From positions 312 to 64,311 of the forward strand of contig NZ_JBNKYN010000017.1 in assembly GCF_050300915.1 (NCBI RefSeq): a stretch of DNA of 64,000 bases. The letters run 5' to 3'. Every line of letters begins with the position of its first letter. Positions within the stretch are counted from its first letter, which is position 1. A program made the translations under genes and the position numbers. The stretch comes from Amphritea sp. GTDB taxonomy: Bacteria > Pseudomonadota > Gammaproteobacteria > Pseudomonadales > Balneatricaceae. Below are positions 38,022-61,313 of the stretch, piece after piece. Below the pieces are notes generated by a model that saw only the letters and a list, made by a program, of their open reading frames with translations, was not told where the DNA came from and ran no database searches.

Positions 38022-38112
38022 AGAACGTCACTGCGTGACTCGCTAGACGCGGCTTCGCCGCTTGCTGGTGGCTAGAAAAAGATTAAACAAGCCACTATAG
38101 GTTAGCAAGCGC
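38022..38112 (+). repeat. CTAG-linked mini-hairpin repeat, forward arm plus truncated reverse arm
   Basis: GTCAC-TGC-GTGAC and GCGGC-TTC-GCCGC hairpins, TGGCTAG-AAAAAG; about 53 bp nearly identical to 61261-61313. Confidence 0.85.
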
Positions 38113-38148
38113 TTACATACACAAACTTACACTTTTTCAGGTTATATT

Positions 38149-39189
38149 ATGAGCTGGTTAGAAACGCTTAATGCGCTGGGTGTTCAGGTTGATGAGCGGG
38201 GAAACTACCAGGTTTCAGCCGCAAAGAACAGCGATGCGACAGTCACGATCACCCCGCTGACCCATCTGGGTCTGTTTGATGTGATCGGGCCGGATGCGGA
38301 GAAATTTCTTCAGGGTCAACTCTCCTGTGATGTAAAAAAAGTCAGCGCGGGTAAAAGCCTGCTGGGTTCGCACTGCAATATCAAAGGCAGTATGGTTAGC
38401 CTGAGCCGGTTGATGCCGGTTGCAGGTGGCTTCTGGCTACGCACCGAGCGGTCGATTCTGGACACCGCGATGGCCAATCTGAAAAAGTATATGATCTTCT
38501 CCAAAGCACAGAGCCAGGACCGCTCAGATGAGATCGTTGGCCTGGGAATCAGTGGTGCACAGGCCAGCGCGCTGCTCTCTGCTCAGGGGTTGAGCATCCC
38601 CGCCGCAAACGACGATACGACCCCTGCTAAAGGTGGCGTGCTAATCAGGGTGCCGGGAGATCGGTTTGAGTTGTGGCTGCCAGCAACCGAGGCAGGCCCC
38701 CTGTTAACCTCGCTATTAACAGCGGCATCACTGACAGATACCGACAGCTGGAAGCTGGCAGAGATTCGCAGCGGTATCCCCTCGTTGCAGACAGAAACCC
38801 TGGAAACCTTTATCCCCCAGATGACCAATCTGCAGGTCTTTGAAGGTGTCAGCTTCTCCAAGGGCTGCTATACCGGCCAGGAAGTTGTCACCCGCCTGCA
38901 ACACCGGGGCAAGCTCAACCGGCCGATGTACCGACTGGCGTTTACCGCGGATCAGGCTCCCGCCGCCGGGACGGCAATCAATACACCAGACCGTGCTGGC
39001 GTCGGCACCGTGGTCAGCGCAGCAATGAGCACAGACAATGGAGGCGAACTGCTGGCGGTGATTCTGAAAAGCAGCGTTGATGATGACAGTGTCATACTGA
39101 CGCTGGAGAACAACGAACAGCCACTGGAACGACTGGACCTGCCCTATGAGCTCGACCCTGAGCTTTTTGAGCGGCCCCAGCGACTTTGA
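38149..39189 (+). CDS. ygfZ: Folate-binding tRNA-modifying/Fe-S repair protein YgfZ
   Basis: FLQGQLSCD and KGCYTGQE signature. Confidence 0.93.
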   Translation: MSWLETLNALGVQVDERGNYQVSAAKNSDATVTITPLTHLGLFDVIGPDAEKFLQGQLSCDVKKVSAGKSLLGSHCNIKGSMVSLSRLMPVAGGFWLRTERSILDTAMANLKKYMIFSKAQSQDRSDEIVGLGISGAQASALLSAQGLSIPAANDDTTPAKGGVLIRVPGDRFELWLPATEAGPLLTSLLTAASLTDTDSWKLAEIRSGIPSLQTETLETFIPQMTNLQVFEGVSFSKGCYTGQEVVTRLQHRGKLNRPMYRLAFTADQAPAAGTAINTPDRAGVGTVVSAAMSTDNGGELLAVILKSSVDDDSVILTLENNEQPLERLDLPYELDPELFERPQRL

Positions 39190-39327
39190 GCGGCAACACC
39201 AGTGGACAAACCCCGACAACCTGCCGGGCAGAGATCATCTTTATGCAGAAAATGTTTGCCGCCCCATTTTTTCCAACTGAAGACCTGATTATACTACGCT
39301 TACATTTTTATCCTGGAACAACAGATC

Positions 39328-39894
39328 ATGCCAAAAGCTAGCGAAATAAAAAGAAATGCCGCCATCGAAATTAACGGCGAAGCCTATATTGTTAGGGATA
39401 TCGAGCGCTCGGTTCCTCAGGGGCGTGCCGGAGGCAGTCTCTATCGTATGCGGATGTACAATGTTGCCACCAATGCCAAGATAGATGAGACCTTTAAAGA
39501 TTCAGATATGCTGACGCTGGCTGATCTGAGCCGTCGCGCGGCCACCTTCTCTTACGCTGACGGCGATGAGTATGTCTTTATGGACAGTGAAGATTACACC
39601 TCCTACAGCATGAACAGATCAGCGATTGAAGATGAGTTGCTGTTCATTACCGAAGATCTGCAGGGGATGCATGTGATGGTACTGAACGATGTACCCGTGG
39701 CCCTGGACCTACCTGGCATTGTCGAGCTTGAAATCATCGAAACCGACCCATCAATTAAAGGTGGTTCTGCTACGGCCCGCACCAAGCCAGCGAAACTGTC
39801 TACCGGACTGGTAGTGCAGGTACCGGAACATATCTCCACCGGCGACCGCATCAAGGTTAATGTCGAAGAGCGTAAATTTACCGGCCGCGCCTGA
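39328..39894 (+). CDS. yeiP: Elongation factor P-like protein (EfpL/YeiP)
   Basis: EF-P fold ([12 protein letters not shown]); loop PQGRAGG has Arg rather than the PGKG Lys. Confidence 0.85.
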
Positions 39895-39911
39895 TCACAT
39901 AATGCATTAAT

Positions 39912-39941
39912 AAAAAACCGCCGAATCAGGCGGTTTTTTTC
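39912..39941 (+). terminator. Intrinsic terminator after yeiP
   Basis: AAAAAACCGCCGAATCAGGCGGTTTTTTT. Confidence 0.8.
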
Positions 39942-40045
39942 TATTGAGTAGCCCCCTGGATTTTACCTTTTCTGCAAATACAGCGTTGCACTTTCCTATA
40001 GGCCTTTCGATTGCAGAGGTGAGCAAAACAGCCTTAACAGGCTGG

Positions 40046-40072
40046 TTCTAGCAAGACTAGCAAGTTTCTAAC
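40046..40072 (-). repeat. Degenerate reverse arm of the CTAG repeat family
   Basis: TTCTAGCAAGACTAGCAAGTTTCTAAC; overlaps the stop codon of the 184-aa ORF. Confidence 0.5.
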
Positions 40073-40622
40073 TCCTTCCCAGTTTACGCCTGAGGCGCAT
40101 ACTGGGCCCAACCTGAGCTTCCGGGTGAGGTGTTTGCAAAATAACCAGCTCGCCATCGACAAAGTCCTGCTCCATCCCCAGCATAATCGCCGAAGCGTTA
40201 TCCAGATGCAGCACCAGCAACGCATCATAGTTCAGGGATTCTGAGGGAATATTCAGTTCTGCTGCGACAATGTCGATCAGTTCCCGCTGCTCATAGAGAT
40301 CAATAGAGGAGACCCTGGCAGCCGCAGGCAGACTGATCCAGCTGCACTGTTCAGGGCGTGGGACAACCGCGTCAACCTCCTTAACCACCAGACTGCCGAC
40401 AGTAAAACCATCGGCAAACGGGTGCCGCTCAACGCTCACCTCAATCCACTGTTCATCGCTCAACCGGAATCGCAACCAGCAGGCGCGGTTCATATCCTGC
40501 CCCAGACAGGTATGCAAGCCACCCGCCCAGATCTCATCCAGACGCAGATCCAGTAACTGGGAAAGAGTCTCCAGGGCATCTGTATCCAGATGGAATACTT
40601 TCAAACGAACCGTCTCAGGCAT
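40068..40622 (-). CDS. Hypothetical protein (184 aa), no family recognised
   Basis: Open ORF; minus strand has GGAG 7 nt before the ATG (GAAAGGAGACTCCCTATG); not overlapped by other credible genes. Confidence 0.7.
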   Translation of the reverse strand: MPETVRLKVFHLDTDALETLSQLLDLRLDEIWAGGLHTCLGQDMNRACWLRFRLSDEQWIEVSVERHPFADGFTVGSLVVKEVDAVVPRPEQCSWISLPAAARVSSIDLYEQRELIDIVAAELNIPSESLNYDALLVLHLDNASAIMLGMEQDFVDGELVILQTPHPEAQVGPSMRLRRKLGRS

Positions 40623-40650
40623 AGGGAGTCTCCTTTCAGTCGACAGACAA

Positions 40651-40695
40651 ACTTCGCCGCTGGCTAGTGGCTAGTGGCTAGTGGCTAGAAAAAGC
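40651..40695 (+). repeat. CTAG repeat family: (TGGCTAG)x4 heptamer run ending in GCTAGAAAAAGC
   Basis: ACTTCGCCGC-TGGCTAG TGGCTAG TGGCTAG TGGCTAG-AAAAAGC. Confidence 0.85.
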
Positions 40696-40785
40696 GTAAC
40701 ACAATCAGCAGTTTACTGTATCCGTTTTTTAAAGTTCCTGATCTTCCCAGCCACCAACAGGCAAAAAGCGCCGTCCGGTCTGGCT

Positions 40786-41565
40786 TCACCAAGATGCCCC
40801 CCTTTCAGCAATCATCTTTCGCACCATTGCATCGTAAAATTTGACTGCAAAGCCACTTTCCGAGATCAACTGCTGAGTCAAGCTCGCACACCGGGACTTA
40901 ACCTCATCCAAAAGCAGATTATCTTCGCCACCAAGAGCACCAGCAGCCAACTGAATTTCTGCCGCACGCTGTACCGTCCAGAGCAAGAAAAAGGTTCGCT
41001 CAATATCCGCTTCGCCTACCGCAACACCATGGTTTCGAAGCACTAAAATGTGCTTATCACCTAAGCTTTTGAGCATACGCTCCCGCTCTTCCCTGAATAA
41101 AGTAATACCCTCAAACTCATGGTAACCAACCCGGTTATATAGCTGCGCACCATAAAAATCATCATGCCCAAACCCCCTCACTTTCTGTGCTATGGCAGAA
41201 ACCTCATTGGTATGAGTATGCACTACACAGTGGATATCGCTACGCGCTCCGTGGATGGCGCTGTGCAGGGCAAAACCTGCCGGATTCGCGTCATATTCAG
41301 AAGGTTCAACCTTATTTCCTTCCAGGTCAACTTTAAGCAAATTTTGCGGCGAGACTTCTGTGTAGTTAAGACCAAAGGGATTAACTAAATAGCAGCCCTC
41401 CTCACCCGGAACACGAGCGGATATATGATTAAAGATGGTCTCTGTCCACCCAAAAAAATCTACCAAATGATAACAATATGCCAGCTTTACCCTTAGCTCC
41501 CATTCGCCAGCCGACATACCTTCCGGGCAAGCGAATCTGACATCCACATCATCAGTTTTATACAT
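40786..41565 (-). CDS. Class II aldolase/adducin family metalloprotein
   Basis: NHISARV, NPFG, LHSAIH, VVHTHT, LRNHG. Confidence 0.9.
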   Translation of the reverse strand: MYKTDDVDVRFACPEGMSAGEWELRVKLAYCYHLVDFFGWTETIFNHISARVPGEEGCYLVNPFGLNYTEVSPQNLLKVDLEGNKVEPSEYDANPAGFALHSAIHGARSDIHCVVHTHTNEVSAIAQKVRGFGHDDFYGAQLYNRVGYHEFEGITLFREERERMLKSLGDKHILVLRNHGVAVGEADIERTFFLLWTVQRAAEIQLAAGALGGEDNLLLDEVKSRCASLTQQLISESGFAVKFYDAMVRKMIAERGASW

Positions 41566-41588
41566 GGCATTACTTCCTAGATACAGAG

Positions 41589-42557
41589 TTAATCAGAAAA
41601 GCCGTTCCGGCCTGGAAAAGAAGGGGCAAGCTCTCGCGCATTGGGCATTTTCAGCCAGAGACGGACAAGCTTGCGGTATCGATCAGGCTCTTCATAATCC
41701 TCGAACCCGGTTCGAGAGTGAAGCACCATGTAATTGTTAGCAAACTGGATATCGCCCGGCTCCAGCATCATGTCGAGCTTAACCTCGTTGCGGTGCATGA
41801 TATCGTCAAACAGATCCATCGCTTCAATCTGCTTCTGACTCAAGGGCACGCCCTCAATATCGTGTCCAAGCTCAATATACTGGCGTAAGTAACGACAACT
41901 GAGCTTGCCTTTGTGATAACTGAAGATAGGCGACAACGTTGGTTTTTCATCACCCAGGTGAGCAAAATAAAACGGTTGATACAGCACATCCAGGAGGTCA
42001 GGCGCCTCATCCAGGATCGTATTATAGATAGTTGCCGCACTGACCAGGCTGCTCATCCCTCCCTCCCTGGCTTTTTTAATCGACAACAACCCTACCACAT
42101 CGGACAGGTCTGTGTGGTAAGGCAGATAGGCGTTGGTCTCATAAACCCGGGTATTCTTGTCGTTAAGATCACCGACATTGATCACCATACCGAGCAGGTC
42201 GCCTTTAGGATTCTGCTTCACAGCCTGGCCAAGATGTAAGCCCAGACCGTAATAGATAGACTGTAGCTCACTCTCATCATAGCGATCCGCATTTAGCCCT
42301 CTTATCAGGATAAACCCCCGCCCCTCTTCTAACTCATCCAGAATGCGCTCAATGCCTTCCTGCATTTCAGCAATGGGGAAGTCACTTTTTTCAAACATCG
42401 GCGCCTTAATGCCCTGATCATTCAGGTGCTTCAGCGCCAGATCAAGCACCTCCTGCTCCTTTTCTGAAAGCAAATAGACCCACGACAGGTTCGATTTAAG
42501 GCTATCCCCATCCCAGGCAGCTTGCCCATTAATTTTCTGCCCATAACGATTAATCAT
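41589..42557 (-). CDS. TauD/TfdA family Fe(II)/2-oxoglutarate dioxygenase (clavaminate-synthase-like)
   Basis: HTD facial-triad motif (YHTDLSD), distal His in NNYMVLHSRTGF, RKLVRLW. Confidence 0.88.
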   Translation of the reverse strand: MINRYGQKINGQAAWDGDSLKSNLSWVYLLSEKEQEVLDLALKHLNDQGIKAPMFEKSDFPIAEMQEGIERILDELEEGRGFILIRGLNADRYDESELQSIYYGLGLHLGQAVKQNPKGDLLGMVINVGDLNDKNTRVYETNAYLPYHTDLSDVVGLLSIKKAREGGMSSLVSAATIYNTILDEAPDLLDVLYQPFYFAHLGDEKPTLSPIFSYHKGKLSCRYLRQYIELGHDIEGVPLSQKQIEAMDLFDDIMHRNEVKLDMMLEPGDIQFANNYMVLHSRTGFEDYEEPDRYRKLVRLWLKMPNARELAPSFPGRNGFSD

Positions 42558-42712
42558 AAAATACTCCTTCAGTATTCAAAATGCGGCGCATGACGCTCCT
42601 ACATACCGGCTTGAGTCCATGTAACAAAAGCCCACACCGACCAAACAACATGGGCTGGCATTAACCTGCTCCCATTGGAAAGTGAGAACTGACAAGCGAA
42701 CCATAATTAAAT

Positions 42713-42870
42713 ATAGTTTCACATGCAACTATTTTAGAAATACCTGAGAGTAGAATATCGACCTAAAAAGCAAAAAAATAAGGCAGCATGTCGATAAAAC
42801 CCACAAAAACAAGAAGGATTGCAAATTTATGCAAAACACCTATGAAATTTTATGTTTCATATAAAACATA
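42713..42870. promoter_or_regulatory. Two related 20-bp palindromes, candidate MarR operators
   Basis: ATAGTTTCACATGCAACTAT (42713-42732, 8/10 pairs) and TATGTTTCATATAAAACATA (42851-42870, 9/10 pairs) share GTTTCA-N-AT-NN-AAC; both lie in the divergent promoter region. Confidence 0.6.
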
Positions 42871-43069
42871 AAAGCTCTACACATAGTCAAATAGACGATC
42901 AATTGAATAGTCAAAAGACGCATCAAGAATATCGGCACCTACAGCTGCCCGCATAAACCCGCTAAAAGGAAGCTGTTCACGCTTTACTTAAAACGAATAA
43001 TCTTTATCCTAACGACTTGTACTCAATTACTATTGAGTTAATTAAAAACCGACTCAAGTATCATCGTAG

Positions 43070-43594
43070 ATGAAAGATAAATACCAAAGCCCACTTGATC
43101 TGGAACAGATGTTAGCGGCAAAGCTGACTCGCATCAGCAGCACTCTGGATCATTTCAGCAATTATTATTATTCCGAAGTTTTCCCAGAAACAAACCTGAA
43201 CGATGCACGTTATCTGCTTATCTTAGGAGCAAGAAAAGAAGCCTCTGCTGTAGATATCGTCAAAGCAATGAATTTTGACAAAGCAACCGCCAGCAGAAAT
43301 ATAAAAAAACTTATAAATCAGGGACTTATAATAAGAAAGACCGACCCATCTGACGCTCGTCGCAACCCCCTGACCCTGAGTAAAAAAGGCCAGGCGATCT
43401 ATGATGAAATCAGTCAGTCGCTCAGATTAAGAAATGAAGCCGCTTTAGCCTCTCTATCACCCGGCGAAGTAACAATATTCTTTGAAATACTCGATAAGCT
43501 ACAAGCAAGTGCAAATAATCGATTACAAAAAATGAATAGCGACAAGCAAGATCCCGCCATCGATTACACCACCTCCACGATAATGCAGCCTTAA
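43070..43594 (+). CDS. MarR family transcriptional regulator
   Basis: wHTH with DKATASRNIKKL...DPSDARR...LSKKG. Confidence 0.9.
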   Translation: MKDKYQSPLDLEQMLAAKLTRISSTLDHFSNYYYSEVFPETNLNDARYLLILGARKEASAVDIVKAMNFDKATASRNIKKLINQGLIIRKTDPSDARRNPLTLSKKGQAIYDEISQSLRLRNEAALASLSPGEVTIFFEILDKLQASANNRLQKMNSDKQDPAIDYTTSTIMQP

Positions 43595-43646
43595 CAAGCC
43601 GTAGTTCGAAGTGCAATAATTCAACTTAACGTAACGCCCTATTACC

Positions 43647-43720
43647 GCTCTTTCTAGCCGTGAAAAGCCACCAGCAGGCGCGCAGCGCTGTTCTGACAAG
43701 CGACGAAATCGCGTCTAGCT
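43647..43720 (-). repeat. CTAG repeat family, reverse arm
   Basis: Minus strand reads GCTAG-ACGCGATTTCGTCGCTTG...GCGC-TGC-GCGC...GGCTAGAAAGAGC; starts in the ung stop codon. Confidence 0.75.
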
Positions 43721-44422
43721 GCTAATGTCCCCCGGGAGCTGCCAGTCAACCGGGCGACGACCATGAGCCGCAAGATACCCATTCGCCTGACTAAAATGTT
43801 TGCAGCCAAAGAAGCCGCGGTAAGCGGCCAGCGGCGAAGGGTGAGCAGATTTCAACACCAGATGACGCTGCGGATCGATGACGGCGCCTTTTTTCTGCGC
43901 ATAGCTACCCCACAGCAGAAAGACCACATGTTCACACTGTTCATTCACGGTAGCGATCACCCGGTCGGTAAACTGCTCCCAGCCCCGTCCCTGATGGGAG
44001 GCCGCCTGTGAATCCTCAACCGTGAGCACAGCATTCAGCAGCAACACCCCCTGCTTTGCCCAGCTTTCCAGATAACCATGATTTACCGGTGTAACGCCCA
44101 GATCACTTTGCAACTCTTTATAGATATTCACCAGCGAGGGGGGTGTTTTGATACCCGGACGTACCGAAAAACAGAGTCCATGGGCCTGATCCGGCTGATG
44201 GTAGGGGTCCTGCCCGATAATCACTACTTTCACCTCATCCAGAGGCGTTGCCTCCAGGGCATGAAACCAGTGACTTGAATGGGGATAGATAATTTTTTTA
44301 GCCGCTTTCTCCTGCTGTAAAAACTGTTTCAGCTGTTGCATATAGGGGGCATCAAACTCAGCATTTAACCAGGGTTGCCAGCTGGGGGCATTTTCCAGTG
44401 CCATCACACAATCCTCACTCAT
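43715..44422 (-). CDS. ung: Uracil-DNA glycosylase
   Basis: GQDPYH, HGLCFSV, GVLLLN, HPSPL. Confidence 0.97.
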
Positions 44423-44872
44423 TCAGTTATCACCACAGTCACGAATTTTTATATTAACCTGACCCTGCCATATTTCGCGAGTCAGGGTTTTACCATAGAT
44501 AACCGAGTAATAACGTACTTTACCCGGCGCATGGGAGATGACTCCAGAGATCAGGATGACCAGAATGTAGATCCAGGCCTGGGGCTGGGAAAACCAGTAA
44601 ATACCGGTCACCAACAATATCAATTTGAACAACACCAGCTGGCCACGCAACTGATACAGCCAGATAGCATCAACGTACAGCTCCTTTAGCACCATCAGTA
44701 TGCCGCTACCAACACCAACAATCAGGTAGGGCAACCAGACCGTCTGCGGCTGATGAAACAGATAGGCACCACCCAGCCCGGCAATTCCCACCAGATGTAA
44801 TGAGCGCAGTATAATGCTGATCCAGCGTTTACCGGGCAGATGGCGTTTCTGTTGCGGTATTAACCAGCTCAT
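44423..44872 (-). CDS. Conserved hypothetical inner membrane protein (about 4 TM)
   Basis: Hydrophobic helices, RSLHL and SHAPGKVRYYS motifs; start placed at ATG 44872. Confidence 0.72.
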   Translation of the reverse strand: MSWLIPQQKRHLPGKRWISIILRSLHLVGIAGLGGAYLFHQPQTVWLPYLIVGVGSGILMVLKELYVDAIWLYQLRGQLVLFKLILLVTGIYWFSQPQAWIYILVILISGVISHAPGKVRYYSVIYGKTLTREIWQGQVNIKIRDCGDN

Positions 44873-44974
44873 ACAGATATTCCTGAAGGCATATTCCTGA
44901 CGACAAATTCCTGAAGAAAAAAGGGCCACCCGTGGGCAGCCCTTATAGATTAACCGGTTCGGTTCAAAGACGCA

Positions 44975-46477
44975 TCAGCCGCGGGGACGCATCGCCGGGA
45001 ACAGGATAACATCACGAATCGATGCAGAGTCGGTGAACAACATCACCAGGCGGTCGATACCGATACCTTCACCTGCGGTTGGCGGCAAACCATATTCCAG
45101 GGCGTTGATGTAGTCGGCATCGTAGTGCATCGCTTCATCATCACCGGCATCTTTTTCAGCCACCTGTGCCTGGAAACGTTCCGCCTGATCTTCAGAGTCA
45201 TTCAACTCGGAGAAACCATTGGCCAGCTCGCGGCCAGCAACAAAGAACTCAAAGCGATCGGTCACAAACGGATTGGCATCGCTACGACGAGCCAGCGGTG
45301 ATACCTCAGTCGGATACTCAGTGATAAAGGTTGGTTGCTGCAGACGGTGCTCAACGGTCATTTCGAAAATCTCGATCTGCACCTTACCCAAGCCCCAGCT
45401 GTCCTTCACATCGATATCCATACGCTCAGCAATCTGCCGGGCAGCATGGTCATCCGCCAGGGCTTCTGCGGTGATATCCGGGTTATAGTGGAGGATAGAA
45501 TCAAATACGCTGAGACGGGTAAACGGCTTCTCAAGATCGTATTCAAAGGTTTCCAGAATCTCGCCATCTTCGTTGCGCACAGTGTTGACGATGGTCGTGG
45601 TGCCCAGTACGTTCTGCGCCACGGTGCGCAGCATCTCTTCGGTCAGGTCCATCAGATCATGGTAGTCCGCATACGCCTGATAGAACTCAATCATAGTGAA
45701 TTCAGGGTTGTGACGGGTCGACAGACCTTCGTTACGGAAGTTACGGTTGATCTCAAACACCCGCTCAAAACCACCGACAACCAAACGCTTCAGATACAGC
45801 TCCGGCGCGATCCGCAAAAACATATCCCGGTCCAGCGCATTGTGATGGGTAATAAACGGACGTGCACTCGCACCGCCAGGAATCACTTGCAGCATCGGCG
45901 TTTCCGCTTCGATAAAACGTTTTTCCGTGAGGAAGTTACGAATACCGGCTACGATTTTCGAGCGGGTTTCAAATACTTTGCGTGAGTGTTCGTTGGTAAT
46001 CAGATCAACATAGCGCTGACGATAGCGCATCTCAGTATCCTGCAGACCTTTGTGCTTATCCGGCAGTGGCCGCAGGTTTTTAGTCAGCAACTGATACTCA
46101 CCCAGGTCAACGTACAGGTCGCCTTTACCCGACTTATGCAGCACACCGGTCACACCGATGATATCACCCAGATCGAGCGACTTGGCAAACGCGCGTGCTT
46201 CTTTATTGACATAAAACTGAATCCGCCCGGTCATATCCTGCAGTACACCAAAGGCACCACGGTTGAGCATCACCCGGCCCGCAATACTGACGGTAATGCC
46301 CTCTTCCGCAATCTCCTCCTTCGATTTATTGCCATGCTGATCCTGCAGATCCTGAGCATAACTGTCACGACGGAAAGTGTTTGGGAAAGCGTTACCCGCT
46401 TCGCGCAGCGTGTTGAGTTTTTCACGACGCTCCGCAATCAGGCGGTTTTCATCTTGCGGCTGAATAGTTTCAGACAT
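44975..46477 (-). CDS. lysS: Lysine--tRNA ligase (class II)
   Basis: [39 protein letters not shown]. Confidence 0.98.
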
Positions 46478-46609
46478 TTTATGTGCAACCTTTAATGGTT
46501 AAATCTTTAATTCCAGAGATCGCTAAATCACAATCTCTTCATATTTGCTAAATCGCTTAAGCGTTACGCCAGCGAGCGCAGCCACTTAAACGCGGTGAAA
46601 GCGTTATAA

Positions 46610-46705
46610 GCGCAGGGCTGACAAGGCAAAAACATGCGAAACAGCGGAGCCTACGACTGCAGGTGAGCATGTTGAGCGCGTTTTTAACGCCGTCAGCACA
46701 AGCGC
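46610..46705. repeat. About 96-bp nested imperfect inverted repeat (MITE/REP-like intergenic element) between prfB and lysS
   Basis: Paired arms GCGC/GCTGAC/GGC/AAAAAC versus GTTTTT/GCC/GTCAGC/GCGC; single copy in this window. Confidence 0.5.
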
Positions 46706-46729
46706 AATAGCTTTCTCAGTGTTTAAAAC

Positions 46730-52651: not shown

Positions 52652-52952
52652 GCTAGAACGGAAGCTTCGCTTCCTGCTAGTAGTTAGACGCAACTGCGTT
52701 GCTTGCTAGAAAAAGCAAAGATTAAGAGCAATAGCACGGAGTGGCTTTAATCTTTTTCCAGCAAGCGCAGCGTTCTAACCACTAGCAAGTCACGCAGTGA
52801 CGTCTAGAACGGAAGCTTCGCTTCCTGCTAGTAGTTGCGTTGCTCGCTAGAAAAAGCAAAGATTAAGAGCAATAGCACGGAGTGGCTTTGATCTTTTTCT
52901 AGCAAGCGCAGCGTTCTAACCACTAGCAAGTCACGCAGTGACGTCTAGCTAG
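52652..52952. repeat. Two tandem copies (151 and 141 bp) of the complete CTAG-hairpin element
   Basis: Units begin CTAGAACGGAAGCTTCGCTTCCTGCTAG at 52653 and 52804; both carry the same core AAAAAGCAAAGATTAAGAGCAATAGCACGGAGTGGCTTT. Confidence 0.92.
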
Positions 52953-52975
52953 CCGAACTTGTTCGGCGGTCTGAC

Positions 52976-53010
52976 GAGCAGGATAAATTGCTGCGCAATT
53001 TATCCTGCTC
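52976..53010. repeat. Perfect 16-bp inverted repeat with TGC loop overlapping the lptG stop codon
   Basis: GAGCAGGATAAATTGC-TGC-GCAATTTATCCTGCTC. Confidence 0.85.
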
Positions 53011-54061: not shown

Positions 54062-55154
54062 GATCAACCCTCCGCCGGCTCAGCAGTCTCTTCAACTTAC
54101 CATCCGTACTTAATAACCCCATTGCCAGTGCGAAGAACAGCAGGTGTACCAGCCACAGCAGAATCACCTCACCACCATCGCGTTCTATATATTTACGCAC
54201 ATTGGTCAACAGCATCAGATAGGCCATATACAGCAGGATCGAGGGGATCAGCTTGGCATAGCGCCCCTGACGTGGATTAGTCCGGCTTAGCGGTACCGCC
54301 AGCAGCGCTACAATCAGCGTCAGCATCGGCAGCGATAAACGCCAGTGCAGCTGGGCTTTTTCCGCCGCATTACCATCGATAAGCTTCCAGCTGGGCAGCG
54401 AGTAGAGTTCATTCACCTGCTGAATCGGTTGCTGGTCCGGCAGGCGGATGCCGTACTCTTCAAAGGCGATCTGGCGATAATCCGCTTCGCCGGGATTGCC
54501 CTCATAGCGATAACCATTATCCAGCACCAGATAGCGGATACCGGTGTCCGGATTGGTATAGCTGCGGCCTTTTTCAGCCACCACCATCACCGCCTTCTCC
54601 CGGTCATCCAGCGTCACTTTTTCGGAGATAAACACCCCTTGCATCGTGCCACTGGTTTTATCCAGATTCTCAATATAGGTAACCCGGTTACCCCGGGGCA
54701 TCGTCTGAAAACGCCCTTCGGTGATCACATCAAACTCACCAATATTACGCTGCTTCTGCAGCATAATTTCGGTCTGGTTAGCCCCGACAGGCGACAGATA
54801 CAGGCTCATCAGCGCAACCAGCAGCGCAGTCAACAGCGCTGGCCCGAGGGTATACATTGTCAGGCGACGCTGACTCATGCCAGTGGCCTGCAACACCACC
54901 ATCTCGCTTTCAAGATACAGACGACCATAAGCCAGCAAAATACCGAGAAACAGCCCCAGCGGCAAAATCAGCTCAAGAAAACCGGGCATCCGGAACAGAA
55001 GGTAGTAGAATACCGCCTCCATCGGTATTTCACCGGCGGCGGCAATACTCAGATAACTGATAAAACGGCCACTCATAATGATCAACAGCAGTACCAGAGT
55101 GACTGCGGCCATGCTGATCAACACCTCTTTGGCCAGGTAGCGAAAGATAATCAA
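54051..55154 (-). CDS. lptF: LPS export ABC transporter permease LptF
   Basis: LIIFRYL (TTG start at 55154), GRLYLESEM, PLSRTNPRQGRY. Confidence 0.94.
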   Translation of the reverse strand: MIIFRYLAKEVLISMAAVTLVLLLIIMSGRFISYLSIAAAGEIPMEAVFYYLLFRMPGFLELILPLGLFLGILLAYGRLYLESEMVVLQATGMSQRRLTMYTLGPALLTALLVALMSLYLSPVGANQTEIMLQKQRNIGEFDVITEGRFQTMPRGNRVTYIENLDKTSGTMQGVFISEKVTLDDREKAVMVVAEKGRSYTNPDTGIRYLVLDNGYRYEGNPGEADYRQIAFEEYGIRLPDQQPIQQVNELYSLPSWKLIDGNAAEKAQLHWRLSLPMLTLIVALLAVPLSRTNPRQGRYAKLIPSILLYMAYLMLLTNVRKYIERDGGEVILLWLVHLLFFALAMGLLSTDGKLKRLLSRRRVDHAA

Positions 55155-55333
55155 ACTGCCATATCCTGTGTAATTGCAGATAAAGAATTCTCTCTGATAC
55201 CGAAAACAGGGTTTTGTTTCTGCGGCATTAGGATAAAATCCGGGTATCAATTTAAAATCGGCCCAACAGATACAGGTTGAGCAGGTGCGTCATTATCTTA
55301 TAAACCAAGCACGATGTCTTGTGTGGAGAAAGC

Positions 55334-56833
55334 ATGGAATTTGAAATCGTTACCGGTTCAGTAGAATCCCTTGAAACTGACTGTTTAATCGTCGGCGTCG
55401 CCCCGGGTGGCGAGCTTGCCCCCTCTGCGGATCTGATAAACCAGGCATCAGCGGGTTATCTGAAAGAGGTGCTGGGAGATCACCAGGGCAAAGTCGGCGA
55501 AACCCTGCTGCTGCACAAGGTTCCGGGCATCAGCGCCAGCCGTGTTCTGTTAATCGGTCTGGGCAAAAAAGAGGAACGCAGCGACCGCAATCAGGTCAAA
55601 ATAATCCAGAGCATCATGAGCAATCTGAAAGCGATCCGCTGCAAAACCGCCGTCATCGCGCTGGATGGCCAGGAAAGCGCGGATCAGGACCTTTACCGTC
55701 AGCTGCGTCACAACACCGAATGGGCCAGCGCCGAGCTGTATCAGTATGACGCAACCAAGAGCAAAAAAGCTGACCCACTCAGCCTTGAAAGCATCGCGTT
55801 TCTGCTAAGCCATGATGACGCCGAGCTGGGCGAGTTTTCCATTAGTGATGGTTCTGCCATCGCCAACGGTATCGACACCGCCCGCGAACTGGGCAACCTG
55901 CCGGGCAATATCTGCACCCCATCCTACCTGGCCGAGAAAGCGCTGGCACTGGCAACCGAATGCGAAGAGCTGACCACCACTATCCTCGACGAAGAGGAGA
56001 TGGCACAACTGGGCATGCACTCGCTGCTGTCGGTCGGCAAAGGCAGCTCCGAAGCGTCCAAGCTGATTGTCATGGAATACCAGGGTGGCGAACCAGACCA
56101 GCAGCCTCATGTACTGGTGGGCAAAGGGATCACCTTCGACACTGGCGGCATCAGCCTGAAGCCGGGTCTGAAGATGGACGAGATGAAGTTTGATATGTGC
56201 GGTGCCGCCAGTGTCATGGGTGCCATGGAAGCACTGACACAACTGGGCCTGGACCTTAACGTTGTGGGTATTATTGCCGCTGCAGAAAACATGCCTTCCG
56301 GTAACGCGTCCAAGCCCGGTGATATCGTCACCACCCTGTCCGGCCAGACCGTTGAGATTCTCAACACGGACGCTGAAGGCCGTCTGGTGCTGTGTGATGC
56401 GCTGACCTATGCTGAGCGGTTTGACCCGGCCACCGTCGTCGATGTTGCCACCCTGACTGGTGCCTGTATCGTCGCCCTGGGCAACCATGCGACCGGCCTG
56501 CTCTCCAACGACGACCTGCTGGCTGATGACCTGATGGCCGCCGGTGAGTTTGCCGCTGACAAAGTCTGGCGCCTGCCATTGTGGGACGAATATCAGGAAC
56601 AGCTGGACAGCAACTTTGCTGACATCGCCAACATCGGCGGACCGGCCGCAGGCACCATCACTGCCGCCTGCTTCCTGTCCCGCTTCACCAAGAAATACCG
56701 CTGGGCACACCTGGATATCGCGGGCGTTGCCTGGAACAGCAACGGCAAAGCGAAGGGTGCAACCGGACGCTGCGTACCCCTGCTATGTCAGCATCTGATT
56801 GCGCAGGTGGATGATCTGACCGACGACGAGTAA
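55334..56833 (+). CDS. pepA: Cytosol leucyl aminopeptidase PepA (M17)
   Basis: VGKGITFDTGG, MKFDMCGAA, NTDAEGRL, WAHLDIAG; ATG at 55334. Confidence 0.96.
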   Translation: MEFEIVTGSVESLETDCLIVGVAPGGELAPSADLINQASAGYLKEVLGDHQGKVGETLLLHKVPGISASRVLLIGLGKKEERSDRNQVKIIQSIMSNLKAIRCKTAVIALDGQESADQDLYRQLRHNTEWASAELYQYDATKSKKADPLSLESIAFLLSHDDAELGEFSISDGSAIANGIDTARELGNLPGNICTPSYLAEKALALATECEELTTTILDEEEMAQLGMHSLLSVGKGSSEASKLIVMEYQGGEPDQQPHVLVGKGITFDTGGISLKPGLKMDEMKFDMCGAASVMGAMEALTQLGLDLNVVGIIAAAENMPSGNASKPGDIVTTLSGQTVEILNTDAEGRLVLCDALTYAERFDPATVVDVATLTGACIVALGNHATGLLSNDDLLADDLMAAGEFAADKVWRLPLWDEYQEQLDSNFADIANIGGPAAGTITAACFLSRFTKKYRWAHLDIAGVAWNSNGKAKGATGRCVPLLCQHLIAQVDDLTDDE

Positions 56834-56931
56834 ATCCGGATCTTAACGGGCCAGGGCTACGGTTTTATGCCTGTCCTGAGCCGTTAAGCCTGCGGATTCA
56901 CTCTGCCAGCTGATGCCAACAGGATCGCTAA

Positions 56932-57366
56932 ATGAGCCAAGCTGATTTCTATGTTCTCCCCGACGCCGACCCGGAAAGCCGTACCGCCTTCCTCTGTCGC
57001 CTGGCGGATAAGGTGTTGGGCCACGGCCTCAACGCCTATATCCACGTCACCGGAGCCAGCGAGGCCGAACGGCTGGATCAGTTATTGTGGGATTATCGCG
57101 CCGACGCCTTTATCCCCCACGGCCTGCTCAACAGCAAACCCGACGCCCCGGTGCAGATCGGCTGGGGCGATCAGCTGCCACAACACCGCGATGTCTTCAT
57201 CAACCTGGCCCTGGACGCCACAGAGGAAACCCTGAAATTTGATCGTATTCTGGAGATCGTTATCCAGCAACCCGACATCCTCACCGCCACCCGTAAAAAC
57301 TACGCCCTCTACAAAAGCAACGGCATCACCCCGAAGATGCATGATATGCGTAAGAGCAGTAGCTAG
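56932..57366 (+). CDS. holC: DNA polymerase III chi subunit
   Basis: ADFYVL, LDQLLW...FIPH; synteny pepA-holC-valS. Confidence 0.92.
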   Translation: MSQADFYVLPDADPESRTAFLCRLADKVLGHGLNAYIHVTGASEAERLDQLLWDYRADAFIPHGLLNSKPDAPVQIGWGDQLPQHRDVFINLALDATEETLKFDRILEIVIQQPDILTATRKNYALYKSNGITPKMHDMRKSSS

Positions 57367-57628
57367 ACGTCACTACGTGACTTGTTAGACGCTCCTTCGT
57401 CGCTTGCTAGTCGCTAGAACAAGCATTTTAGTCCACTAGAATCAATATTCTTCTCTTGATCTTCGCTTTTCCTAGCAAGCGACGCAGTCGCGTCTAACTC
57501 CTAGCAGGAAACGAAGTTTCCGTTCTAGCCACTCTCGCGTTTTTTTGCGAGTACCTAACTACTAGCAAGTGCGAAGCACGTCTAGCTTCTGCGCGTCATA
57601 ACGTAGTTTGCCAGCAGCTAGAAAATGC
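57361..57628. repeat. CTAG-hairpin array downstream of the four-helix-bundle gene
   Basis: Forward modules 57361-57420, reverse modules 57469-57587 (direct repeat of 58172-58289), extra GCTAGAAAATGC at 57617. Confidence 0.9.
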
Positions 57629-57636
57629 AACAACGC

Positions 57637-57978
57637 TCAGGGCTCCGTTGATTTAATCAGTGTGGCCAGCATTTTCTGAATCTCATCCAGCTCCTTTCTC
57701 CAGTCACAGCCTCGCTCCGTATGGATGTAACCAATTCGCTGACCGATATAAACCTGGGTTTTCAGCTCAGCGAGCGAACCCTTGGCATAGTAGAGAAATT
57801 GCCGTTTCTCCTTGAGTGATCCCCGCTCAAACCCCTCAGCGATATTACTGGGTATCGACAAACTACTGCGGGTTATCTGATCCCTGAAACCAAAATCCCG
57901 GCAGCGGGAAAGAACGGTATACACCTCACAACTCAATCGACAAGCACGCTTCCATACATCCAGGTCTTCATAACTCAT
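57637..57978 (-). CDS. Four-helix-bundle protein (23S rRNA IVP family, Avd-like fold)
   Basis: EDLDVW, RDQITRSSLSIPSNIAEG, AKGSLAELKTQ family motifs; 113 aa. Confidence 0.92.
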   Translation of the reverse strand: MSYEDLDVWKRACRLSCEVYTVLSRCRDFGFRDQITRSSLSIPSNIAEGFERGSLKEKRQFLYYAKGSLAELKTQVYIGQRIGYIHTERGCDWRKELDEIQKMLATLIKSTEP

Positions 57979-58064
57979 AACAAATTCCTTTTCGTCATTT
58001 CTGAAAATTAGTCTAGTTCAAAAAAAACGCAGTTCACAATGGCAGCCCCATTCGGGAATAAGTT

Positions 58065-58290
58065 GCTAGAACGGAAACTTCGTTTCCTGCTAGACGCTAG
58101 AACGCTGCGCTTGCTAGAAAAAGATAAAACCCACACCCGGCCAATTCACCAGAAGCTTTTAGTCTTAGCTCTTCCTAGCAAGCGACGCAGTCGCGTCTAA
58201 CCACTAGCAGGAAACGAAGTTTCCGTTCTAGCCACTCTCGCATTTTTTGCGAGTACCTAACCACTAGCAAGTGCGAAGCACGTCTAGCTA
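58065..58290. repeat. CTAG-hairpin array upstream of the four-helix-bundle gene
   Basis: Forward modules 58065-58123, reverse modules 58172-58289. Confidence 0.9.
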
Positions 58291-58363
58291 CTTAAGCCCC
58301 CCGGCGCTATAATATGCGACTATTTTTCTGCCCTAATTCAAGCGTTGAGAGCACGGTTATTTA

Positions 58364-61225
58364 ATGGATACCACTTACCAGCCACACGAGATCGAGAAAT
58401 CCTGGTACAAAATCTGGGAAGAGAAAGGTTACTTTGCCCCCTCCGGTGAAGGCGAGGCCTACAGCATTATGATCCCGCCGCCGAATGTCACCGGCAGCCT
58501 GCATATGGGTCATGCTTTCCAGCACACCATCATGGATGCGCTGATCCGTTATCAGCGAATGAAGGGTAAAAACACCCTGTGGCAGGTCGGTACCGACCAC
58601 GCCGGTATCGCCACCCAGATGGTGGTTGAACGTAAGCTGGCCGCCGAAGAGCAGAAAACCCGTCATGACCTCGGCCGTGATGCCTTTATCGAGAAGATCT
58701 GGGAGTGGAAAGGTGAATCCGGGGGCATGATCACCAACCAGATGCGCCGTCTGGGCGATTCGGTTGACTGGCCGACCGAGCGTTTCACCATGGATTCCGG
58801 CTTCTACAACGCCGTGCAGGAAGTGTTTATCCGTCTGTATGACGAAGGCCTGATCTACCGTGGCAAGCGTCTGGTTAACTGGGACCCGAAACTACACACC
58901 GCGATCTCCGATCTGGAAGTGGAAAACCGCGAAGTGAAAGGCAAAATGTGGTATCTGCGCTACCCGCTGGCGGATGGTGTCAAAACCGCCGCCGGAGATG
59001 ACTTTCTGGTGGTCGGTACCACCCGTCCGGAAACCCTGCTGGGGGATACCGGCGTCGCCGTGAACGCCGAAGATGATCGTTATAAAGATCTTATCGGCAA
59101 AGCGGTTATCCTGCCGCTGGTTGGCCGGCGCATTCCGATTGTGGCCGATGAGCACGCCGACATGGAAAAAGGCTCCGGTTGTGTGAAAATCACTCCGGCC
59201 CACGACTTCAACGATAATGAAGTGGGTAAGCGTTGCAAGCTGCCGATGATCAACATTCTCACCCTCAACGGCGATATCCGCGATGAGGCCGAGACCTTCA
59301 ACACCGATGGCAGCGAAAACCACGAGATCGACAAAACCCTGCCGGAGAAATACCGTGGCATGGAGCGTTTCGCCGCCCGTCGCGAGATCGTTGCCGATAT
59401 GGACGCCGCCGGGCTGCTGGTGAAGATCGAAGAAAACGATATGACCATCCCCTACGGTGACCGTGGCGGTGTAGTGATCGAACCGATGCTCACCGATCAG
59501 TGGTTTGCCGATGCCAAAACCCTCTCCGGCCCTGCCGTTGAAGCAGTTGAGAACGGTGATATCAAGTTCGTACCGAAGCAGTACGAGAACATGTTCTTCG
59601 CCTGGATGCGCGACATTCAGGACTGGTGTATCTCCCGTCAGCTGTGGTGGGGCCACCGGATTCCGGCATTCTACGATAACGAAGGCAATGTCTACGTTGC
59701 CAAAGATGCCGACGCTGCGCGGGAAAAATATGGTCTGGATCTGCAAACCGAACTGCGTCAGGACGATGACGTCCTCGATACCTGGTTCAGCTCTGGTCTG
59801 TGGACCTTCGGCACCCTGGGCTGGCCGGAAAACACCCAGCGTCTGCAAACGTTCCACCCGACCGATGTGCTGGTCACCGGCTTCGATATCATCTTCTTCT
59901 GGGTTGCGCGGATGATGATGATGACCATGCACCTGATCAAAGATGAAAACGACAAGCCGCAGGTACCGTTCAAAACCGTTTACGTCACCGGTCTGATCCG
60001 TGATGAAAACGGCGACAAGATGTCCAAATCCAAGGGCAACGTGCTTGATCCGCTGGATATGATTGATGGCATCAGCCTGCCAGAGCTGCTGGAAAAACGT
60101 ACCGGCAACATGATGCAGCCACAACTGGCGGAGAAGATCGCCGCGCGGACCGAAAAGCAGTTCCCGGAAGGTATCGCGGCCCACGGCACCGACGCCCTGC
60201 GCTTCACCCTGGCGGCGCTGGCCTCCACCGGCCGCGACATCAACTGGGATGTGAAGCGTCTGGAGGGTTACCGTAACTTCTGTAACAAACTCTGGAACGC
60301 TGCCCGTTATGTGCAGATGAACACCGAGGGTGAAGACTGCGGCCAGCTCTCCGCAGAGAGCGAAGTTGAGCTTTCACTGGCCGATCGCTGGATCGCCAGT
60401 GAACTACAGAAAGTTGAAGCACAGGTCACCAGGCATCTGGACGAATATCGCTTCGATCTGGCATCTCAGACCCTGTATGACTTCATCTGGAACGAATACT
60501 GTGGCTGGTATCTGGAGCTGTCCAAACCGGTATTGTGGGACGAAAACGCCTCCGCTGCCGCCAAGCGTGGCACCCGCCGCACCCTGGTACGGGCACTGGA
60601 AGTGATCCTGCGACTGACCCACCCGATCATGCCTTATATCACCGAAGAGATCTGGCAGTCGATTAAAGGTCTGGCCGGTGTCAAAGGCGACACCATCATG
60701 CTGCAACCCTACCCGGTTGCCAATGAAGCGAAACATGATGCCGCCGCTGAAGCCGATATCAACTGGCTGAAAGGTGTTATCACCGGCGTCCGTAACATCC
60801 GTGGCGAGATGGGCATCTCACCCGCCAAAGGTCTGGATATCCTGATCAAAAACGGCAGCGCCGACGATAAAACCCGTCTGGACGCCAACAAAGCCTTCCT
60901 CGCTAAACTCGCTTCACTGGCTTCCGTCACCTGGCTGAACCCGGGCGATGAAGAACCGATGTCAGCGGTACAGCTGGTCGGCGATATGCAGGTTCTGGTA
61001 CCGATGGCCGGCCTGATCGACAAAGACGCCGAACTGGCCCGTCTGAAGAAAGAGATGGATAAGCTGGAGAAAGAAGCCGGACGTCTGGCAGGCAAACTGA
61101 GCAATGACAAATTTGTCGCTAATGCGCCGGAGGCGGTTGTTGCTAAAGAGCGGGAGAAGCTGGCGGAGTATAAGGCGTCGTTGGGGCAGCTGAAAGAACA
61201 GGCGGCTAAGATAGAGGCGCTTTAG
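58364..61225 (+). CDS. valS: Valine--tRNA ligase
   Basis: [34 protein letters not shown]-terminal coiled coil. Confidence 0.98.
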
Positions 61226-61237
61226 CAACAGCAACAG

Positions 61238-61313
61238 TGGCTAGAACGTCGCTTCGCTCCTCGCTAGACGCGGCTTCGCCGCTTGCTAGTAGCTAGAAAA
61301 AACGTTAACAAGC
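61238..61313 (+). repeat. CTAG-hairpin forward arm immediately after the valS stop
   Basis: TGGCTAG-AACGTCGCTTCGC...GCTAG-ACGCGGCTTCGCCGCTTGCTAG-TAGCTAG-AAAAAACG. Confidence 0.87.

Follow-up and report, generated by a model that had tools for sequence, protein, structure and literature searches.

The 64,000-nucleotide stretch of an Amphritea sp. genome analyzed here, called the window throughout (contig C17, positions 312–64311), carries in the spacers between its genes a repeat built of CTAG-tagged mini-hairpins, which represents a real, undescribed, lineage-restricted repeat family. The genome that contains the window (G000) is a 4.57-Mb draft of 275 contigs with 50.9% G+C and is 93% complete; other G numbers denote comparison genomes, C numbers contigs, and L numbers fetched loci. 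The hairpin modules are strung into forward (F, plus-strand) and reverse (R, minus-strand) arms, and an F arm, a core, and an R arm together make up a full element. A first-pass annotation of the window had named a modular repeat family at eight sites, and we recovered it at all of them, in clear form at six (38024, 40652, 52653, 57351, 58061, and 61238) and in decayed form at two (40048 and 43648). A possible relic that it had also listed near 46569, CCAGCGAGCGCAGC, has neither tags nor a hairpin and was excluded from the count.

Behind psd, whose stop codon lies at 38007–38009, an F arm at 38024–38082 (plus strand) comprises two modules (GTCAC-TGC and GCGGC-TTC), one tag decayed to CTGG, a TGG-CTAG unit, and an inner AAAAAG. 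A decayed R-type remnant, CTAGCAAGACTAGCAAGTTTCTAA, occupies 40048–40071 on the minus strand and retains tags without hairpins; a decayed R arm stands at the same site in G003, and none was seen in the other relatives. The next two arms are the halves of one split element. Its left half is an F arm at 40652–40695 (plus strand) with half a hairpin, (TGGCTAG)x4 at 40664–40691, and an inner AAAAAGC, and its right half is a decayed R arm at 43648–43725 (minus strand) in which CTAG has changed to CCAG-type letters. Between them, inside the boundary of core and R arm, lies a 3-kb block (40696–43647) encoding a class II aldolase, a TauD-family dioxygenase, and a MarR regulator. Two full elements follow in tandem. 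Copy 1 (52653–52807) consists of an F arm (GGAAGC-TTC, GCAAC-TGC), a 37-nt core, and an R arm (a decayed GCGC module and GTCAC-GCA), and its last CTAG is common with copy 2 (52804–52952), a tandem duplicate without 10 nt of one hairpin.

The IVP gene (57637–57978, minus strand) lies between holC and valS and encodes a 113-residue four-helix-bundle protein (PF05635/TIGR02436). F arm A (57351–57424, plus strand) begins behind holC with the outer motif TAAGAGCAGTAG in place of the last holC codons, and its first CTAG provides the TAG stop of holC (57364–57366); in genomes with an empty site, HolC ends in ..RPKG* and the spacer is 240–308 bp long without a repeat. R arm A (57465–57587, minus strand) is the 3' arm of the IVP gene, in IVP sense, with the modules GCGAC-GCA, GGAAAC-GAA, CTCGC(G)T7GCGAG, and GTGC-GAA. 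It is a near-identical direct repeat of R arm B (58168–58290, minus strand), whose outer end CTAGCTACTTAAG abuts the valS promoter; the empty-site genome G008 has a lone CTAGCTACTTAA at that spot. An inner-motif remnant, CAGCAGCTAGAAAATGC (57612–57628, minus strand), sits against the IVP stop codon, at a position where G010, G007, and G003 have a complete R-arm start. F arm B (58061–58123, plus strand) contains GGAAAC-TTC, an ACG unit, a stemless AACGCTGCGCTTG module, and the inner motif CTAGAAAAAG. Behind valS (stop codon 61223–61225), a further F arm at 61238–61303 (plus strand) has two modules, of which one is perfect and the other carries a mismatch, together with a TAG-CTAG unit and an inner AAAAAAC, and the intrinsic terminator of valS (61311–61338, plus strand) stands 13 nt past the inner end of this arm. 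In addition to holC, two genes of the window take their stop codon from the repeat: the CTAA of the remnant at 40048–40071 is the TAG stop of the minus-strand gene 40068–40622, and the outer CTAG (43715–43718) of the decayed R arm is the TAG stop of the minus-strand gene 43715–44422.

The repeating unit reads CTAG-(A)AC-[G NNN C-TNC-G NNN C]-T(T)G-CTAG. A module is 22–30 nt long with CTAG at both ends, and its core is a perfect GC-rich hairpin with a stem of 5–7 bp starting G-C and a 3-nt loop. Adjacent units have one CTAG in common or are separated by a 3-nt linker followed by CTAG or TTAG, so that the arrays run with a 7-nt period (TGGCTAG, TGGTTAG). Head-to-tail strings of modules and TGG(C/T)TAG heptamers make up the polar arms. 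The outer end of an arm often reads (T)AAGAGCAGTGG, and the inner end reads CTAGAAAAAGC. All units in one arm have the same orientation, with inversion seen only of whole arms, and the linkers TGGTTAG and TGG are fixed. By reading, the subtypes follow a preferred order from outside to inside of ATC..TGG, then AAC..TG, then AC..TTG; moreover, some arms carry an outer CTCGC-A(n)-GCGAG module, and a CTCG variant of the tag occurs in TTGCTCGAACG.. and in TGGCTCG arrays. Heptamer arrays of the form TGGCT(A/C)G, with 3–11 or more units, were found at many loci in 14 of the 24 genomes of the genus, while the control pattern gave 0.

Modules were searched by their flanks alone; in the scan of the genomes of the genus, the module pattern read backwards served as a control and gave 0–1 matches per genome. 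In G000, 54 of the 64 flank-defined modules are perfect hairpins, with a TNC loop in 52 of the 54 and at least 16 different stems, so that the shared module grammar described for the window holds genome-wide. Likewise, loci of other species yielded 61 perfect hairpins among 66 flank-defined modules (TNC loop in 57 of 61), and among the distinct modules pooled over all sequence, 286 of 312 are perfect hairpins. In an alignment of 24 unique 26-nt modules, 93% of the cells pair, and the three inner pairs are changed on both sides in 26 cells; none of 500 shuffles reached the level of the modules, and every slid register scored far lower. The closing pair is always C-G, and the loop on the opposite strand reads GNA (GAA, GCA, or GTA). 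The oligonucleotide d(GCGNAGC) forms an extraordinarily stable DNA mini-hairpin with a GNA triloop, the stability of which needs a C-G closing pair (PMC13037366, PMC3201870).

Full elements have inverted arms with AAGAGCAGTRG-CTAG termini, and no clean pair of filled and empty sites showed a target duplication. The element at 58060–58295 folds at −98.6 kcal/mol (z = −8.5). The first-pass annotation had described complete elements as a forward arm, an A-rich core, and a reverse arm. The paired arms hold, but the core is not one conserved A-rich sequence and differs by site: the core sequences of different copies are unrelated, and in some copies the core is simply a bidirectional terminator.

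The tag itself is avoided outside the repeats. CTAG occurs 66 times in the window, compared with 179 ± 14 in dinucleotide-preserving shuffles, and 45 of the 66 fall inside the clusters named by the first-pass annotation (38043–75, 40048–60, 40664–88, 43654–718, 52653–952, 57363–621, 58066–287, and 61241–96). Across G000, it is the rarest tetramer (1,952 copies, the next rarest having 5,341), with an observed/expected ratio of 0.11 by base composition and 0.39 by a Markov model. The rarity of CTAG that the annotation had expected is borne out, and so is the concentration in the arrays that it had proposed to measure: 13.5% of all CTAGs in the genome sit no more than 40 nt from a module, in a zone that makes up 0.23% of the DNA and has a CTAG density 66-fold that outside. 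Very-short-patch repair as the cause of CTAG rarity is unsupported, with no Vsr gene detected in the 93%-complete G000. In decayed arms, CTAG has most often turned into CCAG, CTGG, CTCG, TTAG, or CTAA.

Further copies, which the first-pass annotation had proposed to look for, are plentiful in the genome and its relatives. The G000 draft holds ~93 arms, and modules are present in 16 of the 24 genomes of the genus as delimited by GTDB, which form one subclade; the other eight, which lack modules, are those whose HolC is least similar. A two-module pattern scanned over 185,579 species, one genome each, matched only Amphritea (A. atlantica, A. balenae, A. pacifica, sp. HPY, and several metagenome-assembled genomes) and one metagenome-assembled genome labeled "Oceanospirillales". 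With a looser pattern, the number of modules per genome ranged from a handful to 213, the maximum being in G018, where many modules have a GCAAGC center in place of the triloop. Among the other 15 genera of the bacterial family (166 genomes), real modules were found only in genus g10 (G100, G109, and G112), with 10–14 each, and G110 and G111 of the same genus probably hold real modules as well. The copies in G000 are clustered, with a variance/mean ratio of 5.1 per 20-kb bin and 18 modules on contig C17 versus 1.6 expected, and stem types are common to neighboring sites in 16.5% of cases versus 9.4% for distant sites. Like the first-pass annotation, we could not match the family to a named one: Rfam returned 0 matches at gathering scores and, at E ≤ 1, only a meaningless microRNA-precursor match from the long hairpin; literature searches turned up no description of repeats with a CTAG tag or of any repeats in Amphritea; and no plasmid or phage match for the repeat was found.

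Comparison of syntenic regions in five relatives, at 75–87% DNA identity, reveals that the arms keep their locus over the long term while CTAG-bounded modules swap, appear, and vanish. The arm between psd and ygfZ is present in all four relatives in which both flanking anchors were found, with 0, 0, 2, or 2 modules and 1–6 heptamers; G003 and G012 have no module, G022 has two, and A. atlantica has a sixfold heptamer array. The element split at 40.65/43.65 kb is unsplit (F arm, ~50-bp core, and R arm, 150 bp in all) in G007, G012, and G001, where it contains 5, 11, or 0 TGGCTAG heptamers and lacks the 3-kb aldolase/TauD/MarR block, which is present in G000 and G022 only; in G003, an IS481-family insertion sequence lies in its core. 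The 52.65-kb site carries 1–6 tandem units depending on the species. When 27 repeat-bearing spacers of other species were compared with their counterparts in G000, G000 had modules at 23, and the same module series was found at 4 of these 23, so that module content differs at 19 of 23 shared sites. By reading of the alignments, at least seven indels of 17–38 nt each correspond to one module bounded by repeats of the tag sequence. The cleanest of the indels is in A. atlantica, which has ACGTTGCTTCGCAACTTG-CTAG-TGGTTAG-TGG-CTAG between ..GTAG-CTAG and AAAAAAC, where G000 reads ..GTAG-CTAG-AAAAAAC. Moreover, most modules with one mismatch are chimeras, in which the left half of one common stem is joined at the loop to the right half of another.

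A conspecific assembly (GCA_050299895.1, flanks 99.8–99.9% identical) has one element at the site between the RDD gene and lptG versus two tandem elements in G000, a difference that could reflect repeat collapse during assembly; the psd arm is identical in the two assemblies. Overall, the suggestion of the first-pass annotation that the family is a mobile or recombinogenic class is upheld for recombination, given the tag-bounded indels, chimeras, and tandem amplification, but not for mobility, as the arms stay put across species that are ~80–87% identical. Two tandem amplifications of whole units, each an R arm with its adjacent sequence, were also seen, one of six copies with a ~210-bp period in G003 (L103/L104, G003:C1:368743–369813) and one of four copies with a ~203-bp period in G018 (G018:C1:2925187–2925825).

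The repeats are almost exclusively intergenic: in G000, 98 of 99 perfect tagged hairpins lie between genes, and the same is true of 151 of the 153 modules found in the 8-kb loci examined from other species. In G000, 44% of the copies lie between convergent genes, compared with a background expectation of 16%. In co-directional spacers of G000, the arm is in the sense of the upstream gene in 20 cases and antisense in 2, and its outer end is mostly 2–50 nt past the upstream stop codon and far from the next start codon; the 8-kb loci of other species gave 19 sense and 8 antisense arms. Within the window, the plus-strand genes psd, holC, valS, and the RDD gene have F arms, while the minus-strand genes at 40068 and 43715, lptG, and the IVP gene have R arms. 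Since both orientations occur in a single 24-kb stretch, each after its own gene, arm polarity follows transcription and not the replication strand. Likewise, the module positions listed along the one-contig genome G007 gave no switch of orientation with the replication strand. A simple intrinsic-terminator finder placed a terminator past the inner end in 16 of 80 arms (at 4–78 nt, mostly 11–45 nt) versus before the outer end in 5 of 80. At convergent gene pairs, two arms face each other and create a long palindrome. Given this polarity and the terminators past the inner ends, the succession of forward arm, core, and reverse arm usually represents two facing 3' arms. The polarity relative to the upstream gene, the heptamer frame, and the link to the IVP gene in the middle of the stretch were overlooked by the first-pass annotation.

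On balance, we lean toward the interpretation that these repeats are a REP (repetitive extragenic palindrome)/BIME (bacterial interspersed mosaic element)-like and heptamer-repeat-like, lineage-restricted non-coding family with a grammar of its own, in which the arms are transcribed 3' structures, the modules turn over at tags and loops, and the seeding of new sites is rare. The arms would be transcribed as 3' untranslated RNA, in which single arms would form 1–4 small stem-loops and paired arms a long double-stranded stem, of the kind cut by RNase III in 23S rRNA intervening sequences. The effect, if any, might be on the stability or processing of mRNA 3' ends, as for REPs. Module turnover would proceed by slippage or recombination at the shared CTAG tags and the conserved loop, and the colonization of new sites would be rare and would occur without a REP-associated tyrosine transposase (RAYT).

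Several points weigh against this interpretation. We infer the transcription of the arms, and any role as RNA, from their position and orientation. Folded as RNA, single arms are no better than shuffles (z of −2.4 to +1.2), and the mismatched modules have no excess of sense-strand G.U-compatible changes (7 versus 13), so that selection on RNA is not favored; as a test of RNA versus DNA selection, this wobble-pair asymmetry was itself uninformative. The GNA loop is on the template strand, which points to a structure at the DNA level. Because of this loop, the lack of a wobble excess, and the unremarkable folding of single arms, a role as RNA is only a moderate bet. In addition, ~20% of the co-directional arms are antisense, and some elements, such as that at 58061–58290, lie between divergent genes. 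Slippage alone cannot account for the seeding of ~90 separate loci, nor for the recurrence of ~16 stem types at unrelated loci and in different species. The material adds its own weaknesses, as the gene calls are crude (longest non-overlapping open reading frames) and the contigs of the draft end at repeats.

The best lead for an agent of site colonization is the PF05635 gene between such arms. The IVP protein belongs to PF05635 with 116 bits and is the sole copy in G000, and its nearest solved structure is 2GSC (XCC0516). In G000, the flanks of the gene are inverted-complementary with z = 26. Across the bacterial family, PF05635 is present in 44 of 190 genomes. Inverted-complementary flanks (z > 3.5) were detected at 24 of the 30 IVP loci inspected, and near-perfect 7-nt arrays at 13 of the 30, with a lineage-specific unit (GTGACGT, GGCGGCA, CACGAAT, CGTAACT, TGGCTCG, and others). 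In the Amphritea subclade and genus g10, the flanks are the CTAG hairpin arms, with 3–12 CTAGs within 300 nt per side. The IVP reading frame is 99.4–99.7% identical in DNA to those of A. atlantica and two metagenome contigs (L147, L148, and L149), where the adjacent valS is only 92.4% identical, and 76–88% identical to those of relatives whose valS is 90–93% identical. This mismatch argues that the IVP gene is exchanged independently of its flanks, and these identities suggest that the exchange between lineages was recent.

These findings raise the unlikely alternative that the PF05635 gene with its inverted arms is an autonomous cassette, whose protein would bind the arms, with their heptamers and mini-hairpins, and promote their spread or exchange, and that the ~90 gene-less arms are non-autonomous derivatives of it. 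The only IVP gene of G000 does lie between inverted arms at the densest repeat site, and the inverted-complementary flanks and heptamer arrays of the IVP loci, as well as the exchange of the gene independently of its flanks, fit such a cassette. In five genomes of genus g10 (G102–G106), the IVP gene stands exactly at the core position (F arm-CTAGAGAAAAGGC-IVP-CTTTTTCTCTAG-R arm), and in G109 and G112, two of only 12–14 modules are within 200 nt of it. The arrangement in Amphritea, however, is not a clean symmetric cassette, with an outer arm end on one side of the gene and an inner arm end on the other. The presence or absence of IVP and modules coincides in 22 of the 24 genomes of the genus, but it follows one clade and is confounded by descent, and it is therefore weak on its own. 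Moreover, G016 (87% complete) and G100 (96%), both fragmented, have modules but no IVP gene, and the GGTCCGA heptamers that accompany the IVP gene of G002 occur nowhere else in that genome. The protein is without a known catalytic motif, and nucleic-acid binding is only supposed. Because the protein is short, its tree is too poorly resolved to show IVP type and arm type traveling together. In its widest form, which we regard as speculative and improbable, the idea would make the PF05635/TIGR02436 protein, whose family is related to the DGR accessory protein Avd, the missing partner of bacterial heptamer-type intergenic repeats in general; in Amphritea, it would recognize the CTAG-framed mini-hairpin arms, and the gene and its CTAG arms would be a transposase-free mobile cassette, with ~90 gene-less offspring that mark mRNA 3' ends and are processed like 23S rRNA intervening sequences. 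At the G002 locus (L129, G002:C14:7558–7924), in a genome without CTAG modules, the IVP gene is flanked by the GGTCCGA heptamers and by ~45-nt repeats that contain CTAG.

It is also conceivable, though we consider it quite improbable, that single modules transpose as single-stranded DNA. A strand-specific enzyme, HUH-like or other, would cut at CTAG and paste beside another CTAG, so that each event would lengthen an array by one module and restore the CTAG at the junction. Such a process would explain why every module has CTAG on both sides with one CTAG common to neighbors, why arms can be reduced to a bare pad (..GTAG-CTAG-AAAAAGC) at which modules seem to have been inserted, and why stem types recur at unrelated loci and in different species. 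The uniform orientation of modules within an arm, despite the palindromic CTAG, suggests a strand-specific process, the GNA loop is stable in single-stranded DNA, and the stems vary while structure, loop, and flanks are fixed, as if the structure and not the sequence were recognized. However, all of the indels are equally explained by deletion or duplication between direct CTAG repeats, the chimeric modules indicate recombination at the loop, orientation tracks transcription and no obvious replication strand, and insertions at a solitary CTAG away from existing arms were not seen. Furthermore, no candidate enzyme was found, the Y1 transposases being unlinked to the repeats.

The first-pass annotation had proposed a co-occurring RAYT or TnpA (Y1) transposase, and a Y1 enzyme was rejected as a partner of the family on the basis of its flanks and of its mismatched presence across the genus. 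G000 has two Y1_Tnp genes (C6:73691–74014 and C15:7355–7678, in open frames of 289 and 219 residues); one is flanked by ~25-bp inverted repeats and the other by ~85-bp direct repeats, both unrelated to the CTAG family, and no CTAG module lies beside either gene. At 28 Y1 loci of relatives, the loose module pattern matched three times, once each in L076, L077, and L082. The RAYT-type Y1 genes of relatives (152–155 residues) have 2–11 REPs of the form GTAGGAG(G/C)C around them and 0 CTAG modules. G004 has modules but no Y1 gene, and four genomes have a Y1 gene but no modules. Classical REPtrons, composed of a RAYT-type gene and GTAGGAG REPs, were observed at L080, L081, L083–L086, L095, L098, and L099 in other Amphritea genomes, and G000 is without both this REP family and the RAYT type of 152–155 residues. 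GTAGGAG REPs also occur as inverted pairs inside the cores of some CTAG elements, as at the 52.65-kb site of G003.

Within the arms, no insertion sequence was encountered other than one of the IS481 family (LZ_Tnp_IS481 + rve); an IS5/IS1182 partner was not sought. The IS481-family element stands exactly at an arm CTAG, with CTAG on both sides, in G003 (L104:4130–5059) and in the G022 counterpart of the window at 52.95 kb, and its ends differ from those of the CTAG-repeat element. The target site of IS481 is NCTAGN, and the arms are therefore targets, not products, of the IS481-family element. With CTAG otherwise avoided in the genome, a large share of the target sites for this element comes from the arms, and a similar IS481-element end, CTAGCTGTAGATACGTTGT, was noted in G000 at C105:1396.

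The arms might alternatively serve as recombination sites for gene capture, like integron attC sites or the dRS3/NIME (neisserial intergenic mosaic element) arrays of Neisseria, with accessory genes entering and leaving between them. In keeping with this idea, near-identical 118-bp R arms flank IVP as direct repeats (in G019, the repeat spans core and arm, ~170 bp); the holC–valS spacer is empty in three genomes, contains IVP in at least nine, and contains other arm-flanked genes in G018 and G016; the three-gene block inside one element is restricted to G000 and G022; and on contig C68 an arm stands behind each of five accessory genes in a row, among them a HigBA pair and a gene for an NYN-domain protein. 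We nevertheless consider it very unlikely, as most arms stand behind housekeeping genes (psd, holC, valS, and lptG) and not cassettes, no integrase or recombinase gene was found by eye next to the islands inspected, and any intergenic repeat will passively draw insertions and homologous exchange; the core that houses the three-gene block carries an IS481-family insertion in G003, which shows that such sites are simply permissive. The island on C68 (positions 7000–16000) comprises a HigB/HigA-like pair, a truncated oxidoreductase, a LysR regulator, the NYN-domain protein, and a 714-residue protein that, from its sequence, was read by eye as an ATPase/nuclease. Behind every one of the five consecutive genes come a terminator and a three-module arm, the arms being near-identical.

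The first-pass annotation had set the shuffled modules against the fixed consensus of REP and ERIC (enterobacterial repetitive intergenic consensus) repeats. This contrast is overstated, because the BIMEs of Escherichia coli are themselves mosaics. Comparing the family with REP/BIMEs and with the REP/REPIN (REP doublet forming hairpins) and RAYT systems of Pseudomonas and Stenotrophomonas (the GTAG super-family, PMC3733652), it becomes clear that they are alike in their short GC-rich extragenic palindromes and unpaired tetranucleotide tag. REP/BIMEs and REPINs also resemble the Amphritea family in forming clustered mosaics, in being enriched behind genes and between convergent genes, in inverted pairs that fold into larger structures, in locus content that differs between relatives, and in supposed 3' RNA hairpins. 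However, GTAG REPs have a GTAG tag at one end, whereas the Amphritea units have the palindromic CTAG(A)AC and T(T)GCTAG at both, and BIME units alternate in orientation, whereas the Amphritea units are in direct tandem within an arm with fixed linkers. The stems of 5–7 bp with a fixed triloop, the heptamer frame, and the defined outer and inner arm ends further separate Amphritea from REP/BIMEs. In REPIN systems, moreover, the RAYT is flanked by the same REPs, while the RAYT-type genes of Amphritea are flanked by the separate GTAGGAG family.

CGTC-tagged REPs have stems of 8–9 bp starting A-T, loops of 4–5 nt, and a CCA tail (PMC3733652). Including dRS3 in the NIME arrays of Neisseria, they are like the Amphritea family in that no dedicated transposase is known and some form large clusters, and NIME arrays border exchangeable genes. 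The R strand of the Amphritea module ends in ..C-GTC-TAG and therefore contains CGTC. Membership in the CGTC REPs was rejected on the stems of 4–7 bp starting G-C and the loops of 3 nt, and no CCA tail was present in the module flanks as read.

The heptamer repeats of Xanthomonas (GGGAATC, often in convergent inverted pairs), Nostoc (GGGGA(T/C)T; PMC4692102), and Beggiatoaceae (TAACTGA; PMC4679880) are, like those of Amphritea, tandem 7-nt intergenic units. They are also alike in their inverted pairs, in a copy number that varies at a kept site, in overlap with stop codons, and in having no known mechanism or partner, but the Amphritea heptamers are interleaved with covarying mini-hairpins, and the unit holds the rarest tetramer of the genome. 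Short tandemly repeated repetitive (STRR) sequences of cyanobacteria are intergenic heptamer tandem repeats, and the tandem TGGCTAG arrays, with a copy number that varies between relatives, fit the definition of such STRR-like repeats.

Intervening sequences of 23S rRNA that bear an open reading frame, coding for S23p/IVP (PF05635), are found in Leptospira, Coxiella, and Xanthomonas. Similarly, the Amphritea locus has a PF05635 gene between inverted arms that are able to pair as a long stem; however, it lies between holC and valS and not in rRNA, its arms come from a family with ~90 gene-less copies, and excision by RNase III is only supposed. The BOX elements of Streptococcus pneumoniae have the structure boxA-boxB(n)-boxC and are, like the Amphritea family, modular non-coding repeats in which the ends are defined modules and the internal units vary in number. 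Their sequence is unrelated, and BOX modules are much larger and have neither a tetranucleotide tag nor a heptamer frame. By their defining features, the Amphritea repeats are thus neither GTAG/RAYT nor CGTC REPs and are probably not plain miniature inverted-repeat transposable elements either, and one locus fits an IVP cassette outside rRNA.

Few parts of bacterial genomes are as poorly understood as small intergenic repeats such as REPs, BIMEs, and heptamer arrays, and the Amphritea family adds one of unusually regular grammar, with an avoided palindromic tetramer, a stem that covaries freely beneath a constant triloop, a frame of 7 nt, and arms with a head and a tail that are anchored at stop codons. 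It allows two processes to be told apart, the long residence of arms at a locus and the fast turnover of modules, and it offers a testable tie between PF05635, a family of unassigned function, and repeats in a cultivable genus (A. atlantica DSM 18887 and others). In practical terms, assemblies from short reads break at the repeats, some genes take their stop codon from them, and they draw insertions of IS481-family elements. Among the contigs of the G000 draft, 133 small ones (<3 kb) have 46% G+C, compared with 50.9% elsewhere, and seem to differ in their use of CTAG; this is probably foreign DNA that was binned together with the genome.

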